Shown: positions 1,062-11,387 of the stretch, piece after piece
How the letters are laid out: every line of letters begins with the position of its first letter
Numbering within the stretch: position 1 is the first letter of the stretch
Source of the DNA: a virus
Taxonomy: Duplodnaviria > Heunggongvirae > Uroviricota > Caudoviricetes
Virus record (IMG/VR): IMGVR_UViG_2663762648_000006
Coordinates: 1-17,357 of that record
Reading direction: 5' to 3' (one strand)
DNA: 17,357 nucleotides
Made by a program: the position numbers and the translations under genes
Notes under the pieces: model-generated
The model's input: only the letters and a program-made list of their open reading frames with translations
Databases searched by the model: none
Told to the model about the DNA's origin: nothing

Positions 1062-2819
1062 TTAAAGCGAGCGGATGCCCACGCTGATCAGATGTTCAGA
1101 CAGATCCAGCTCCGGTTCACCACCATTGACCAGCATCCGGCTCATTGCTGTAAACATCGCAACAGGGCCGTCGATTTTGGCTTCCAGCGTGGATTTATTC
1201 GGGAAGATATTGTCGTTTTTGTCCGGTTTTACCGTAACGTTAGACATCATCCAGTTCATGACCGGATGATTGCTGTGATGGAAACGCCCGGCATAGACCA
1301 GTGATTCCGTTTCCTTCATGGCCTCTGACAGATTGCGAACCGTCTGCGGAACCTCCACCAGCGGTATCCCTTCTTCAGCCAGTGCCAGGCTGAACTGCAT
1401 CGCGCTCCACGGGTCAAATCCCAGTTCCCTGAGGTTTTCACCACCAATCCATTCCAGTAAGTCACTTTTTATCTGAGCATGATCGATAACATCACCATCC
1501 GTCAGAATCAGCTTATCCATCTCCGCCCACTTCCGGTAAAGTTCTGCCTGCTGCCGCGAGCATCGTTCCAGCCGTCCTTCCGGAAGCCAGAATTTAAAAT
1601 CGGCATGAACATGCCCGTTATCCGTTCGCCAGAGTTTTGCCGCCGCACAGATATCAATCTTATGAGCAAGGTCAACGCCGACCCACATGGGATACGTTTT
1701 CAGCTCATGTCGTGGGGCAATGTATTCGCACTTCTCCCACTTAATCATGTCCATCCAGGCAGACTCTGCTGTTACCCACACATTCATGTGTTTGGTAAAA
1801 AAATTCACCCGCGCAGAGACCTGTTCTTTCGCTTTTTTCGCCAGGCGACGCAGATCATCCCAGCGTTTACAGATGCCCAGGCCGGGATTCGCTTTCTGCC
1901 AGACCGTTTCATCAAACGGATCATCTCCCTCATCGAGGGTGTAAATAATCGCAAAGTAGGAGTCGTCTTTTACCGCGCCCTCCACGTCGCTGTTATAGCC
2001 ACGCAATACCTTGATGGCGTAATCACGCTGCTCGTAACAAATCCCTTCCTTGTTAAACCCTGCCGTGGTGATACCAAATAAAAGGGACTGCAGACGGGCA
2101 CCGGTTGCCGTTTCCAGAACGTCCCACACGTCACGGGTTTTATGTGCATGCAGCTCATCAATAATGGCGCAGTGGATGTTCAGACCATCCAGGTTGTTTG
2201 CATCCGAAGAAAGCGGTTCAAATTTTGATGCGCTCTGCTCCTGGTAAATCGCCAGCTTGTTGAAATCAAACAACCGCCCGAGTGTCGACCGGGCTTTTCT
2301 GACCATATTTTTGGCGTCTTCAAACACGATTCTGGCCTGGTCACGCGTGGTTGCGGCTGAATACACCTCAGCTCCGCCTTCACCATCTGCCCCCGTCATA
2401 TACAGGCCGATACCCGATGACAGAGTTGATTTTGCGTTTTTACGGGCGACTTCGTTGTACGCCGTCCGGAACCGGCGCACCATCACCGGACGTCCGCTGC
2501 CATCGCTGCGCATGACAACTTCCCCGGTCTCTTCATTGACCAGCGGAATGACAAAACCAAAAATATTAATGAGGATAAATACATGCCAGTCCATCAACTC
2601 AATGGGCTGGCCTGCCAGCGCCCCTTTTACATGAGGCACAAATTTGTAGAAATTCAGGATGTGCTGCGCACGGGGTTCACTGAAATAAATCCCCCGCTCT
2701 TCGCCGTACTTCAGATCATCAAGAAAACGCTGGCAGGCCAGGCGGACAAATTCGCCAGCAACAATTTCTCCTGCAACAACACGTTCGGCGTAGCGGATCC
2801 CGTCAGCCACTTTTGCCAT
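1062..2819 (-). CDS. Terminase large subunit
   Basis: 585-aa ORF with ATGA start/stop overlap to the upstream small subunit gene. Size, position and sequence character fit phage TerL; the family call is recollection-based. Confidence 0.93.
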
Positions 2820-3301
2820 CAGTCTCTCGCTTTTAAAAGCTCCGCCAGCGGATCAACATCATCCGGTCCGGCGATATTTACTTTAGCCCGGCTTGCCGGT
2901 GACATACCAAACTCTGCAAGCATTGCCCGGATCCGCTTCCAGGCATCCGCTTTCATTGCCGCCGCGGGGTGCGCCTTAATCAGTACATCACCGCTCTGCG
3001 TTTCCGTGCGGTAGGTATACCCCTCAACATCGAGTGTTTCGCAGTGATGCCGATATTCGGTGTAGGCTTCCACCAGCAGCTCGAGCGCACGCGCATCAAG
3101 CTGAGAAATGATCCCTTCCGCATTCAGCTCTTCCGCCATTCGCCTGAACCAGTACTTCCCCTGAGCCCCTAAATGCTGCGGAATTTTAGGAAGACCTTTT
3201 TCATCCTTTTTAGCGGTTTTTTTGTGGTCTTTAACGGGGCGCTTTGAGGGGTTACCTCGAATCAAATGCAGGCGTGGCGGGGTTTTCGGAGGTCCTGACA
3301 T
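2819..3301 (-). CDS. Terminase small subunit (P27-like)
   Basis: 160 aa with a basic N-terminus, immediately upstream of and overlapping TerL. Confidence 0.8.
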   Translation of the reverse strand: MSGPPKTPPRLHLIRGNPSKRPVKDHKKTAKKDEKGLPKIPQHLGAQGKYWFRRMAEELNAEGIISQLDARALELLVEAYTEYRHHCETLDVEGYTYRTETQSGDVLIKAHPAAAMKADAWKRIRAMLAEFGMSPASRAKVNIAGPDDVDPLAELLKARD

Positions 3302-3449
3302 AATCGGTCTTACCTATCAATCGTTTGTTCACATTTCCAAAAAAAAGTTTTCGAACCTGCGGCGATGTGAGGAAGGGTCAGGCGGCGGTACTGAACAGCC
3401 AGGGTTGCAGAGATTTGACCCGCCCCTCCCCTGCAGATGGGAGCTGTTA

Positions 3450-3800
3450 TCAATTGATGCGTTCGCGCGCTGTTTTTGCTTTATGACAGGGCCAGCACAG
3501 ACTCTGCAGGTTACTGTCTGCATCCGTGCCACCATGAGCTTTCGGAATGATGTGGTCCACAGTTCTGGCTTCAACGGCTCTCCCATTGCGCAGGCAGTTC
3601 TGACACAGATGATTATCACGCTTCAGTATGCGCGCACGTATGGCATCCCATTTCGAGCCATAGCCACGCTGGTGGCGGCTCAGTCCGCGTTGATGCTGTA
3701 CCCATCCTTCGCCACGATGTTTATCGCAGTAACCAGAACTGTCTGTGGTTGTACCTGCACATCCACGCTTACGGCAGGCGCGGGGGGTTAGTGCTGGCAT
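3450..3800 (-). CDS. HNH endonuclease (packaging-associated)
   Basis: 116 aa, cysteine-rich, with an HNH-like motif (DHIIPKAHGG...CWPCH). Its position just upstream of TerS is typical of HK97-like cos phages. Confidence 0.88.
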   Translation of the reverse strand: MPALTPRACRKRGCAGTTTDSSGYCDKHRGEGWVQHQRGLSRHQRGYGSKWDAIRARILKRDNHLCQNCLRNGRAVEARTVDHIIPKAHGGTDADSNLQSLCWPCHKAKTARERIN

Positions 3801-3938
3801 GTTTCGCCCTTATATAAATCAAAGGTGACCTGCATTGAGTATCTCCATGGAATAGATTTGCTGCTGATATGAGACAGATCAATAGACTTCATGAGCCAAC
3901 GGGTGTAGATATTACTTTTTACTTCAGAGGGTTAACTC

Positions 3939-4478
3939 ATGGATATTAAAGATAAAATCAATACCATTTTGTTATGTGACATTGCCATCCACCTAGGTAT
4001 CGAAACTGATATTGATCCACAGCTTGTTAAATATGCTGTGTCATCTGGTAATGATTGGGTTATCAAGGCCGAATATTCACATTTGGATGTTGACGAACCA
4101 AGTAAAGAAGATCGTGATTTTGTTACTGCTGTCTTGAATATGTATCGCGGACTTTCCAATGCTTTCAGGAAACTTAGTGATGACGAGCAAAAAGAATTAG
4201 TCCGTGACCATCATCTAAAAATACATGATGGGGCAATTCAGCTCCCAGGTTTCGACGGTAATAATGAATGCGATTACTTCAGTATCATTGAGGCATATCA
4301 GAAAATTGATCGCTTCCCCGAACAGAAACAGCCCATTGCCAATACTCATTCACGTACAGAACATCTCTATAACGCAATGCTTGATGAGTTTAAGAAAATT
4401 GACGCTGTAAATCGAAGCTGGGATTTATCGAAGGAAGAACTGGCATCCATTCTTTCCACAGCTCCACGCAGTTTCTAA
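3939..4478 (+). CDS. YfbU-family (UPF0304-like) protein; moron antisense to the late operon
   Basis: 179-aa ORF with AGAGGG 8 nt upstream. Local GC is visibly lower than the flanks. Blocks resemble my recollection of E. coli YfbU (NMYRGLS, GFDG, C-terminal LSKEEL...IL). A stem-loop follows the stop. Confidence 0.65.
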   Translation: MDIKDKINTILLCDIAIHLGIETDIDPQLVKYAVSSGNDWVIKAEYSHLDVDEPSKEDRDFVTAVLNMYRGLSNAFRKLSDDEQKELVRDHHLKIHDGAIQLPGFDGNNECDYFSIIEAYQKIDRFPEQKQPIANTHSRTEHLYNAMLDEFKKIDAVNRSWDLSKEELASILSTAPRSF

Positions 4479-4483
4479 GTGCT

Positions 4484-4750
4484 TTAGGCGGGTTTCCAAC
4501 CCGCCTTATTATGCTCGTATATAGAGAAGGAAGCACCCAAATTAACCAGCGCGGATTTCTTTTCCTCAATACGGCTGTTAAGTTCAGCAACTGCATGCGG
4601 GCGTATGGCCTCAAGAAAAGCACTATATTGATAGGCAGACTGGATTGTCACACCAAGCCCTGCACCACTTTCCAGTATACCTTTCTGTCGCTGTAGCTCT
4701 TTCATCTCGTTATAGATGTAATGTGCGTTACTTAGGTTTTCTACGTTCAC
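4484..4750 (-). CDS. Hypothetical protein (GTG start; doubtful)
   Basis: 88-aa ORF co-directional with the late operon, but its 3' end is encoded by the terminator hairpin of the opposite gene and there is no convincing RBS. Confidence 0.3.
   Translation of the reverse strand: MNVENLSNAHYIYNEMKELQRQKGILESGAGLGVTIQSAYQYSAFLEAIRPHAVAELNSRIEEKKSALVNLGASFSIYEHNKAGWKPA
4487..4510 (+). terminator. Stem-loop after the YfbU-like gene (8-bp GC-rich stem, 3-nt loop, then TTATT)
   Basis: ggcgggtt-tcc-aacccgcc is read directly from the sequence. The U-tract is weak. Confidence 0.45.
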
Positions 4751-4905
4751 GCCCTAAGTTCTTCCTGCAGTTAGCCTGCACTGATTTGTTATGCGCCAAT
4801 ATGTCCCGCTTCGTCTGTTGCATTATCATAAGTAATAGCGTAGGTTGACACCTTGGCTCTCTTTCGCCACCGGCGAATCTTTAGCGGATTATCCTTGGCC
4901 GGTTT

Positions 4906-5388
4906 TTATCTGAGACATTGCTCACGAATGTATAGCTGTGCCCCTTCCAGTTGCTTCTGCATCGTCATCAACCGTTCTCTGAGGGTGAAATAATCCCGTT
5001 CAGCGGTGTCTGCCAGTCTGGGGCTGGTTGCATTATCCACGCTGGTGGGTCCGGTGGCTTCACGCACGGCTGCGGAGCAACTGGCATTGACCCGCAGGCG
5101 CTTACGACCAGCGGCAACATCAGCGCGCAGAGTTTCATTTTCAGCTTTCGCATTGGCTAATTCTCTCGAGTACTTTGCATCGAGCGCAGCAACATCACGC
5201 TGACGCTGCTGCATGTCAGCGATGGTGGCGGTCAGCTGCTTCAGCTCACTGACTTTTTTATCACGCTGTTCTTTGTAGGTGATGGCGTTATCACGGTAAT
5301 GATTGACCGCCCACGACAGGCAGACGATGATGCAGATAACCAGAGCATAAATAATCGCGGCGACTCTGCTCACTGATCTATTCCCCAA
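4906..5388 (-). CDS. Rz-like i-spanin
   Basis: 160 aa with an N-terminal TM segment and a charged coiled-coil-like body, immediately after the endolysin, with an embedded +1-frame lipoprotein ORF. Confidence 0.88.
4968..5153 (-). CDS. Rz1-like o-spanin lipoprotein, embedded in Rz
   Basis: 61 aa with a lipobox (LVVSAC) and a proline-rich body, wholly inside the Rz gene in another frame. Confidence 0.82.
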
Positions 5389-5903
5389 CAGGCTAATGCG
5401 CTTTCTTGGTCACGACGAATAACCTGTCCATAGCAGTTATTTGAACGTATGCGGCAATCGCGCCCACCATCTTTTATCCACCAGCGAATCGCCTCGCATG
5501 CGCCCTTACGATCACCAGCATTCAGCCGCTTATAAAACGTCGATGGAAAACACTTACCGGGGCCAATGTTATAGGGACAAAATGACGCGATACCCGCTTT
5601 TTGTGGTTCGGTCAGTGGTACTTTAATATTGCGCTCCACCCATGCCAGCGCCTTATCACGCTCAATGGCGTTGACCTGGTCGCATTTTTCCTTCGACAGT
5701 TTCATACCGGGAAAAACGGGTTTTCCATCCACCATCGTGGCACCCCGACAGATGGTCCAGATGCCGGAACCATCGCGGTATGCCGTTGTGTGGTTACCTT
5801 CTTTTTCATCCAGAAACTGGTCGAGAATATCAGGCGCGGGCGCACCGACGGCAATCAGTGCCAGAACGGCAGCCGACAGGCCGTATCTGATTTTTGCGTT
5901 CAT
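5370..5903 (-). CDS. Endolysin, lysozyme-type with N-terminal signal-anchor-release (SAR) domain
   Basis: 177 aa. A hydrophobic Gly/Ala-rich N-terminus is followed by a T4-lysozyme-like Glu/Asp/Thr motif ([20 protein letters not shown]). It pairs with a pinholin as in phage 21. Confidence 0.88.
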
Positions 5904-6829: not shown

Positions 6830-6904
<75 letters not shown>

Positions 6905-6907
6905 ATA

Positions 6908-6983
<76 letters not shown>

Positions 6984-6985
6984 AC

Positions 6986-7062
6986 TGGACCGCCACCGGG
7001 GACTCGAACCTCGCACACTCAACTTAAAGGGTTGACGCTCTTTCCTGATGAACTGGTGACGG
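6986..7062 (-). tRNA. Atypical tRNA-like gene (anticodon loop CCTTTAA, nominally UUU; possibly degenerate)
   Basis: 77 nt with encoded CCA and a T-loop TTCGAGT, but C at position 8, C at position 33 and a T-stem mismatch. It lies 1 nt downstream of the tRNA-Ile-like gene. Confidence 0.4.
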
Positions 7063-7063
7063 T

Positions 7064-7139
7064 TGGTGGCCCTTGCTGGATTTGAACCAGCGACCTGGCG
7101 ATTATGAGTCGCTCGCTCTCACCACTGAGCTAAAGGGCC
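7064..7139 (-). tRNA. ileZ: tRNA with CAU anticodon, tRNA-Ile2 (lysidine) type, ileZ-like
   Basis: 76-nt clean cloverleaf: acceptor GGCCCTT/AAGGGCC, anticodon loop CTCATAA, T-arm GCTGG-TTCAAAT-CCAGC, CCA. It closely resembles my recollection of E. coli ileX and of the tRNA carried by Stx-type phages. Confidence 0.8.
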
Positions 7140-10426: not shown

Positions 10427-10569
10427 CTCCCTGCCCCATCAATAAAAGTTCGGTTCTCTAATAACTAGAGTTAATCAACGGAAAAAACGCCGAAGCGGGT
10501 TAAGTGCGGGTGCGTTGAGGATGCCTGACACATCAGAGGTGGCGAGGGATTTCTCCCCCGCCAGGTCTC

Positions 10570-10782
10570 TTACTCCTCAGGTTCGTAAGCTGTGAAGACA
10601 GCGACCTCCGTCTGGCCGGTTCGGATTCGTACCTCGCAGAGGTCTTTCCTCGTTACCAGTGCCGTCACAATGACGGTTAAACAGATGACGATCAGGGCGA
10701 TTAACATCGCCTTTTGCTGCTTCATAGCCTGCTTCTCCTTGCCTTTCGGCACGTAAGAGGCTAACCTAGATTTGCCGTTCAT
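10570..10782 (-). CDS. hok: Mok/Hok-family type I toxin, copy 1 (Hok/Gef-like 51 aa from the internal ATG at 10725)
   Basis: C-terminal 51 aa (MKQQKAMLIALIVICLTVIVTALVTRKDLCEVRIRTGQTEVAVFTAYEPEE) matches Gef/HokC as I recall it. AAGGAG precedes the internal ATG. The in-frame upstream extension resembles MokC. Confidence 0.85.
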   Translation of the reverse strand: MNGKSRLASYVPKGKEKQAMKQQKAMLIALIVICLTVIVTALVTRKDLCEVRIRTGQTEVAVFTAYEPEE

Positions 10783-10978
10783 AGATTGAGCCTCAGATTA
10801 ATGTTAAGCGTCTTGCAGCAATTCTACTTAAGTATTTTTGATTCTATTCCGGCACCATCTAAAACTTCAAACGCGTTGAAAATAAAAACAAAAACCCGCC
10901 GAAGCGGGTTAAGTGTGGGTGCATTGAGGATGCCTGCCCCATCAGAGGTGGCGAGGGATTTCTCCCCCGCCTGGTCTC

Positions 10979-11191
10979 TTACTCCTCAGGTTCGTAAGCT
11001 GTGAAGACAGCGACCTCCGTCTGGCCGGTTCGGATTCGTACCTCGCAGAGGTCTTTCCTCGTTACCAGTGCCGTCACTATGACGGTTAAACAGATGACGA
11101 TCAGGGCGATTAACATCGCCTTTTGCTGCTTCATAGCCTGCTTCTCCTTGCCTTTCGGCACGTAAGAGGCTAACCTAGATTTGCCGTTCAT
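10979..11191 (-). CDS. hok: Mok/Hok-family type I toxin, copy 2 (identical protein)
   Basis: Translation is identical to copy 1 and lies in the second unit of the tandem duplication. Confidence 0.85.
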   Translation of the reverse strand: MNGKSRLASYVPKGKEKQAMKQQKAMLIALIVICLTVIVTALVTRKDLCEVRIRTGQTEVAVFTAYEPEE

Positions 11192-11387
11192 AGATTGAGC
11201 CTCAGATTAATGTTAAGCGTCTTGCCGGACGCGTAATGTTAACTGGGGCTTTTCTCTATCTGCCTTTGGTGTTCATGCCTGAGGCAGATAGCCTCAAGCA
11301 CCCGCAGCAATTCTACTTAAGTTAGATAAGCTTTTCTATGGTATTCTCTCAGCGTCCCGTAAATACAGTCTCGGCTCATCATTTTTA

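Follow-up and report, generated by a model that had tools for sequence, protein, structure and literature searches.

The 17,357-nucleotide stretch of DNA analysed here (IMG/VR record IMGVR_UViG_2663762648_000006, hereafter the window) belongs to a lambdoid, HK97-like prophage of E. coli, whose late genes lie on the - strand. Between its last lysis gene and the HNH endonuclease and terminase genes we find an island that is a 'moron' locus in the classic bor/iss accessory slot. Against the direction of the late operon, the island carries a gene for a protein of 179 amino acids (aa) that belongs to the YfbU superfamily and has been kept under strong purifying selection in lambdoid prophages of several genera. 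As for its role, we tentatively favour a defence of the lysogen against superinfecting phages, by analogy with Kamadhenu, a YfbU-domain abortive-infection (Abi) system carried by a Lactococcus plasmid.

A YfbU-family cassette in the bor/iss slot

The island and its immediate flanks comprise the following features, in window coordinates, with sizes in base pairs (bp) and G+C content (GC) as a fraction:

3450-3800, - strand: HNH endonuclease gene, left flank of the island (Pfam HNH, 1.9e-16)
3801-4935: island, the variable segment from the HNH start codon to the last Rz codons, delimited by homology breaks and composition (GC 0.419)
3874-3938, + strand: conserved promoter-proximal block and 5' leader, with a putative -35 element (TAGACT, 3883-3888), a 19-bp spacer and a putative -10 element (GATATT, 3908-3913)
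3939-4478, + strand: 179-aa YfbU-family gene, antisense to the late operon (Pfam PF03887, phrog_6084)
4486-4506, + strand: GC-rich hairpin with a 9-bp stem and a 3-nucleotide loop (folding free energy -16.2 kcal/mol, z = -3.1 against shuffles)
4484-4750, - strand: open reading frame (ORF) of 88 aa with a GTG start, made of a phrog_5415 gene (76 codons, 4523-4750) and a 12-codon read-through (4484-4522)
4906-5388, - strand: Rz i-spanin gene, right flank of the island (Pfam Phage_lysis, 1.6e-49; 'lysis protein' in the Prokaryotic Genome Annotation Pipeline, PGAP)
4968-5153, - strand: Rz1, embedded in Rz (from the ORF list)

A first-pass annotation of the window had described an AT-rich island between Rz/Rz1 and the HNH and terminase genes, and the composition bears this out. 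The segment 3801-4935 is the lowest-GC stretch of 1,135 bp in the window (0.419, against 0.491 for the whole window and 0.49-0.53 in the surroundings), and only 0.04% of sliding windows are equally low. Most of the deficit lies in 3801-4521 (0.397); the yfbU-like gene itself has a GC of 0.391, and of 0.34 at third codon positions.

Comparison with phage genomes by megablast shows that the site can be empty. In phages vB_EcoM-606R7 and Evi the gap between HNH and Rz is only about 40-72 bp, and their homology with the window ends exactly at 3800/3801, at the HNH start codon, and at about 4930-4936, in the last Rz codons. These sharp breaks demonstrate that the island is a real insertion/deletion polymorphism. 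An identical island is present in phages vB_EcoS-611R1 and 689R5, and window positions 3801-4935 are found with 100% identity in E. coli strain 4/4, in a prophage region annotated in RefSeq. Altogether, the island occurs in 224 of 5,426 complete E. coli genomes (about 4%, at a cover of at least 80%), where PGAP labels its two genes 'YfbU family protein' and 'hypothetical protein'.

The same joints also receive other cargo. Phage 733R4 and its relatives carry, between the same flanks, bor plus a DUF4347 fragment, and E. coli chromosomes with these flanks carry a GNAT acetyltransferase (AR_0119) or Iss. In phage lambda, bor lies on the opposite strand 32 bp after Rz, with two further accessory ORFs between it and cos. 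The idea that this place is as a rule empty in lambdoid phages is hence wrong, since lambda has bor and E. coli prophages have Iss/Bor or GNAT at the same joints. On the other hand, the proposal of a horizontally acquired accessory cassette agrees with what we observe, namely a segment that is exchangeable between conserved flanks, with either an empty site or different cargo in relatives. Presence or absence between conserved flanks in colinear phages, a deviant composition and a hairpin of its own are all found in the island, as in a moron.

Further tenants of the slot were seen in other prophages (loci from other genomes are numbered L007 to L025). In E. coli D2 an unrelated gene of 187 aa (L007 2359-2922, - strand) sits exactly at the position of the yfbU cassette; this protein and two others from the slot (143 aa in L022, 65 aa in L019) had no match in Pfam or PADLOC. 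A relative that also carries a yfbU-like gene encodes an 85-aa protein with an Acb2/Tad1 hairpin domain (L021 6620-6877, - strand; Pfam 3.2e-10), co-oriented with the late genes. The Acb2/Tad1 fold is that of anti-CBASS and anti-Thoeris sponges. In a Superficieibacter prophage (L017 6990-8488, - strand) a Ser/Thr kinase adjoins the yfbU-like gene within the lysis-to-terminase slot; it matches the PADLOC defence models PD-T4-6 (3.6e-30) and mad6 (7.9e-34) and has a PP2C phosphatase beside it. Judging by these matches, the bor/iss slot of lambdoid prophages exchanges cargo related to defence and to counter-defence.

The yfbU-like gene had been described as antisense to the late genes, with its own ribosome-binding site and hairpin, and both elements are present. 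A good Shine-Dalgarno sequence (AGAGGG, 3926-3931) precedes the start codon at 3939, which is the right one because 35 homologues share a conserved N-terminus. Over the 65 bp that precede the start, identity to loci L019 and L021 is 77-78%, and it falls to 41-45% further upstream; the synonymous sites of the gene itself differ at 65-79% between these loci. Downstream, the hairpin is followed on the + strand by UUAUUAUG, a U tract weak enough that the consensus terminator scan did not list the hairpin, and there is no U tract on the - strand. Analogous hairpins follow the homologous genes in all four loci examined (L010, L014, L017 and the P2-like L008), and the hairpin at 4486-4506 is probably the terminator of the yfbU-like transcript.

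Family, fold and conservation of the 179-aa protein

The assignment of the 179-aa protein to the YfbU family proved correct. The Pfam profile PF03887 matches its residues 46-172 over profile positions 46-164 of 166, with a score of 46.3 bits where the cut-off is 25 (E = 6.5e-12), and phrog_6084 matches from end to end (8.3e-83). The AlphaFold (AF2) model has a mean confidence (predicted local distance difference test) of 90.3, and the only significant matches that Foldseek returned for it in the PDB were the crystal structures of E. coli YfbU, 4lr3 and 1wpb, with template-modelling scores of 0.69-0.74 over 176 columns. For 4lr3_A the E-value was 4.5e-4 with a probability of 1.00, and the next match, an unrelated one, had an E-value of 1.6. 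A search with the family profile reached 1WPB with E = 4e-9, the match covering the C-terminal two thirds; a single-sequence phmmer search of the PDB did not retrieve it. A viral structure library gave one structural match only and added nothing.

Two other candidates were discarded. The Cfr10I/Bse634I restriction endonuclease family scored 18.4 bits in Pfam, under its cut-off of 27, and the fold search yields YfbU alone. A PDB sequence match to a designed stathmin-like repeat protein (4f61) has no Foldseek support and was set aside as an artefact of composition or of helical content.

The chromosomal YfbU (UPF0304; 1WPB, 4LR3) and the 179-aa protein share a two-domain helical fold and the GFD...E...Y positions in their C-terminal two thirds. 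The NCBIfam equivalog for chromosomal YfbU (NF003936), however, gives the 179-aa protein 34.8 bits against a cut-off of 90. With the Pfam match and the predicted fold on one side and this low equivalog score on the other, the protein is best classified, from profile scores and a structural model, as a distinct paralogous subfamily of the YfbU superfamily, and not as an orthologue of chromosomal YfbU. It is 15 residues longer, AT-rich at the gene level and located on a mobile element, whereas YfbU is a core chromosomal gene, and its family has subfamily-specific invariant residues (C13, W40 and H137) as well as an N108-N109 pair present in at least 90% of members.

A large protein collection held 44 relatives, almost all of 179-180 aa, at 50-98% identity with outliers near 30%. 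We examined the genomic context of eight protein clusters, from Enterobacter, Providencia, Superficieibacter and metagenomic or genomic contigs. Homologues at 50-83% identity (loci L010-L024) always have the lysis cassette on one side and the gene of the small terminase subunit on the other, and they are always antisense, and this position is kept despite differing lysis cassettes (GH19 or lysozyme, with various holins and spanins) and terminases (Nu1/GpA-type or P27 TerS/TerL). In all ten loci compared the yfbU-like gene is 10-19 GC points under its flanks, including in low-GC Providencia. The ratio of non-synonymous to synonymous substitution rates (dN/dS) is 0.07-0.13 with synonymous sites near saturation, and the homologue alignment has nine invariant residues (C13, A33, W40, G104, F105, D106, E110, H137 and Y144), four of which, G104, F105, D106 and E110, fall in a GFDGNNE motif. 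From these sequence comparisons we conclude that the family is under strong purifying selection.

More distant members are found in other settings. One relative at 32% identity, in a lambdoid prophage, is again antisense but located ahead of the holin; another homologue at 32% is in the cargo region of a P2-like Yersinia phage, and one at 53% is on a conjugative plasmid. The family profile retrieved 2,082 cluster representatives from 1.84 billion proteins, mostly single-domain and of 170-190 aa. YfbU-family genes are common on plasmids, including those of Actinobacteria, Bacillus, Acinetobacter and one archaeon. A 172-aa member is carried by well over a hundred Enterococcus faecium plasmids, often beside insertion sequence (IS) elements; in the locus inspected (L025 2998-4035, + strand) a co-oriented ORF of 170 aa, with no PADLOC match, begins 7 bp later.

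Candidate functions of the yfbU-like gene

Kamadhenu is a 180-aa, single-gene YfbU-domain abortive-infection system from the Lactococcus plasmid pUCCL624_130 (PMC11381338), and phages escape it by point mutation in a Sak-like single-strand-annealing protein (SSAP) (PMC12184496). It resembles the gene of the window in being a single gene of nearly the same length (180 vs 179 aa), with a PF03887 domain and a structural match to 1WPB, located on a mobile element; they differ in that Kamadhenu sits on a Gram-positive plasmid and the window gene in an enterobacterial prophage, and in that anti-phage activity and SSAP-dependent escape have been demonstrated only for Kamadhenu (PMC11381338, PMC12184496). 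In the window too, the single gene of about 180 codons consists of a YfbU domain and has no conserved partner gene. By this analogy, we give somewhat less than an even chance to the reading we favour, that of a prophage-encoded, Kamadhenu-like defence of the lysogen against superinfecting phages. A defence factor had been put forward as a possibility in the first-pass annotation, and it remains a reasonable hypothesis given the Kamadhenu precedent and two co-tenants of the slot, the PD-T4-6-like kinase with its PP2C phosphatase and the Acb2/Tad1-like protein.

In a Kamadhenu-like defence, the active part of the island would be the self-contained, single-gene cassette 3801-4521, oriented against the late operon. 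The yfbU-like gene could be transcribed in the lysogen while the late genes are silent, and head-on late transcription would shut it down after induction. When another phage superinfects, the 179-aa protein would protect the lysogen by a response of the abortive-infection type, for which intermediates of phage recombination or replication are a possible trigger.

Two known arrangements offer partial parallels. The lambda bor/iss moron has the same slot directly downstream of Rz, the same orientation against the late operon, a presence/absence pattern and a small single gene, and Barondess and Beckwith are said to have found bor expressed in the lysogen. Bor and Iss are, on the other hand, outer-membrane lipoproteins linked to serum resistance; they have no sequence relation to the 179-aa protein, which is cytoplasmic and has the all-helical YfbU fold and an N-terminus unlike a signal peptide. 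The defence hotspots of P2 and P4 prophages are likewise fixed sites where unrelated accessory genes, some of them for defence, swap between conserved flanks (Rousset et al. 2022, PMC9122126), but the slot of the window is lambdoid and its tenants include non-defence genes (Bor/Iss, GNAT).

Several points weigh against a defence role. Bor/Iss and GNAT are not anti-phage, so that a defence role cannot be read from the slot alone. Structures have been solved for the YfbU (UPF0304) family, which has, to our knowledge, no known biochemical function, and we know of no established mechanism for Kamadhenu either. The presumed kinship with Kamadhenu rests on a shared Pfam family, fold and size; among the tblastn matches listed in PLSDB for the window protein and for the E. 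faecium plasmid YfbU protein there is no Lactococcus record. With E. coli YfbU the 179-aa protein shares only 15% identity, and its N-terminal third cannot be aligned by sequence. A consensus sigma-70 scan found no promoter on the + strand (two in total, no more than in shuffles), and the best promoter-like site found by a looser home-made scan is weak, with a match of 8/12 and a 19-bp spacer; because no consensus promoter lies on the + strand, we only infer promoter function for the conserved upstream block. Finally, a check of both island proteins against PADLOC-DB 2.0 gave no match at E <= 1. For the 179-aa protein this result is uninformative, because Kamadhenu is absent from PADLOC and DefenseFinder (PMC13335696).

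A role in lysogenic conversion or host physiology, in which the protein tunes stress or DNA-damage death and thereby lysogen survival or the outcome of SOS induction, is rather unlikely in our view, although it is the most serious competitor. According to one report (PMC2646832), the mazEF-linked death of E. coli cells that follows DNA damage, which is also what induces lambdoid prophages, depends on yfbU, and the prophage paralogue might, for example, mix into or compete with the large oligomer of chromosomal YfbU. Furthermore, the slot also holds Bor/Iss, which change the host phenotype, and GNAT, and the architecture of the cassette fits lysogen expression equally well. The low identity to chromosomal YfbU and the unalignable N-terminal third, however, make hetero-oligomerisation with it doubtful. 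Moreover, the sole experimentally characterised YfbU-domain protein from a mobile element is an anti-phage Abi protein, and the family is also plasmid-borne and adjoins defence or counter-defence genes. Still less probable is a lytic-cycle accessory or counter-defence gene, used by the phage during infection, for example to block abortive infection by the host. The Acb2/Tad1-like gene in the slot of one relative and the lack of a strong constitutive promoter in the consensus scan would fit such a role. But in all loci examined the gene runs against the late operon, and would thus meet Q-antiterminated transcription head-on at the very time a lytic function is required; in contrast, the Acb2-like gene is co-oriented with the late genes, and a lytic role makes no sense for the homologues on a conjugative plasmid.

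We consider it scarcely credible that the 179-aa and 88-aa proteins cooperate as the products of a two-gene module, for example a toxin-antitoxin pair, with a shared hairpin. The GTG-initiated frame does converge on the yfbU-like gene and cross its hairpin, as had been noticed, with its last 12 codons; the two genes stand tail to tail with 5 bp between them, and they occur together in 224 E. coli genomes. However, this frame is not an orphan, as had been thought. Its residues 1-76 match the 76 positions of the phrog_5415 profile (E = 2e-38), and its homologue in D2 has 76 aa and is 85.5% identical (dN/dS about 0.29). The TAA stop codon of D2 reads ATA at 4520-4522 in the window, which adds 12 codons through the yfbU hairpin. 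Homologues of about 76-80 aa in D2, Citrobacter phage Chris1 and Klebsiella phage ST101-KPC2phi6.3 are co-oriented late genes located directly after the spanins, without yfbU, and the copy of E. coli GPEC1031, beside an intact yfbU, is broken by an internal stop. In addition, tblastn found no homologue of the 88-aa protein beside the yfbU-like gene in the loci of Enterobacter, Providencia and Superficieibacter, and the convergent ORFs of L019, L021 and L022 are related neither to the 88-aa protein nor to one another. This failure to co-occur across loci leads us to reject the module. On sequence comparison, the 88-aa ORF does not belong with yfbU: it is a conserved 76-aa late gene that came in with a piece of another lysis cassette and was accidentally elongated when its stop codon was lost at a mosaic joint, whence its overlap with the hairpin. 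Just as hard to defend is a neutral or decaying passenger. Chimeric or shortened alleles of 143-156 aa do exist in metagenomes (the 156-aa and 143-aa clusters match only residues 1-103), and an IS3-family element (ISSen4) has inserted into the island copy of E. coli EC190329 (hit H174). Nevertheless, a dN/dS of 0.07-0.13 with saturated synonymous sites contradicts a mere passenger, as do the conserved length, the invariant motifs, the conserved upstream block and the position and orientation kept across genera.

Within the Kamadhenu-like defence that we favour, a more specific proposal can be made, which we regard as speculative and probably too bold. The 179-aa protein may be the first Gram-negative, phage-borne counterpart of Kamadhenu, a single-protein Abi sensor-effector that would detect the recombination machinery of superinfecting phages, through SSAP or single-stranded DNA intermediates, and the chromosomal YfbU 'death gene' may be a domesticated relative.

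Mosaic structure of the island and the rest of the window

The island had been treated as a single unit, and alignment with E. coli GPEC1031, D2 and AR_0119 resolves it instead into at least two or three mosaic segments:

3801-4521, + strand: segment A, the yfbU-like cassette with upstream region, gene and hairpin (GC 0.397)
4522-4819, - strand: segment B, a late-operon fragment of a GH19-type lysis cassette, with the phrog_5415 gene and a 3' relic of an o-spanin gene
4766-4935: segment C, Rz-downstream sequence also found in prophages with other cargo
4728-4829, - strand: relic of the 3' end of an o-spanin gene, a 33-aa ORF (MIMQQTKRDILAHNK...) matching D2 and Enterobacter proteins

Segment A is common only to GPEC1031, the place in D2 being taken by the unrelated 187-aa gene, and segment B is common to D2 and GPEC1031. 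The prophage of AR_0119 that carries GNAT has segment C at 94% identity, as do many other genomes. Segments B and C overlap at 4766-4819, a core of about 55 bp that is common to all prophages with different cargo and that, from this distribution, may act as a recombination linker. The 33-aa relic resembles the C-terminus of the 68-aa and 62-aa proteins found at the o-spanin position in D2 and Enterobacter, and is placed downstream of a complete Rz/Rz1 pair.

Further along the late operon, on either side of the island and its flanks, are three more genes:

1062-2819, - strand: TerL, late gene
2819-3301, - strand: P27-type TerS, late gene
5370-5903, - strand: lysozyme gene, late gene

Beyond the lysozyme gene come, in order, a DUF1327/YdfR protein, a holin, four tRNAs, Q, RusA and DUF968. 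HNH and TerS are separated by 148 bp (3302-3449), a gap that is kept in all related phages and presumably contains cos, by analogy with HK97, which would place the island near the right end of virion DNA. The four-tRNA cluster (6830-7139, - strand), located between Q and the holin, comprises Gly-TCC, Thr-TGT, Lys-TTT and a tRNA with a CAT anticodon, called Ile by PGAP in strain 4/4. At the same place the near-identical phage vB_EcoS-611R1 has two Arg tRNAs and a pseudo-tRNA instead, which makes the tRNA site a second variable cargo slot. Finally, a hok/sok-type region is duplicated at 10482-11190 (- strand), as a direct repeat of 300 nucleotides with 97% identity and 409-bp spacing that yields two 70-aa ORFs (10570-10782 and 10979-11191). 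Of the two copies, only the second has a sok call in Rfam (11129-11303, - strand; 111.7 bits), and the RefSeq annotation of the matching prophage region of strain 4/4 lists a hokD toxin.

A moron in the bor/iss slot is a textbook element and the gene already has a name in RefSeq, so that the practical gain for annotation is modest. What is new is that, in lambdoid prophages of several genera, this YfbU subfamily strictly keeps its position and orientation; the proposed link to Kamadhenu is new as well. The YfbU family has one functional lead from a mobile element, Kamadhenu, and one from the chromosome, DNA-damage-triggered death in E. coli. If the 179-aa protein were indeed a counterpart of Kamadhenu and chromosomal YfbU its domesticated relative, the whole UPF0304 family would gain a function. 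A strongly constrained paralogue present in about 4% of complete E. coli genomes, without exception in this one prophage slot and opposite in strand to the late genes, offers a genetically tractable system (E. coli, lambdoid phages and existing phage panels) in which to ask whether YfbU-fold proteins are anti-phage sensors, and what triggers them.

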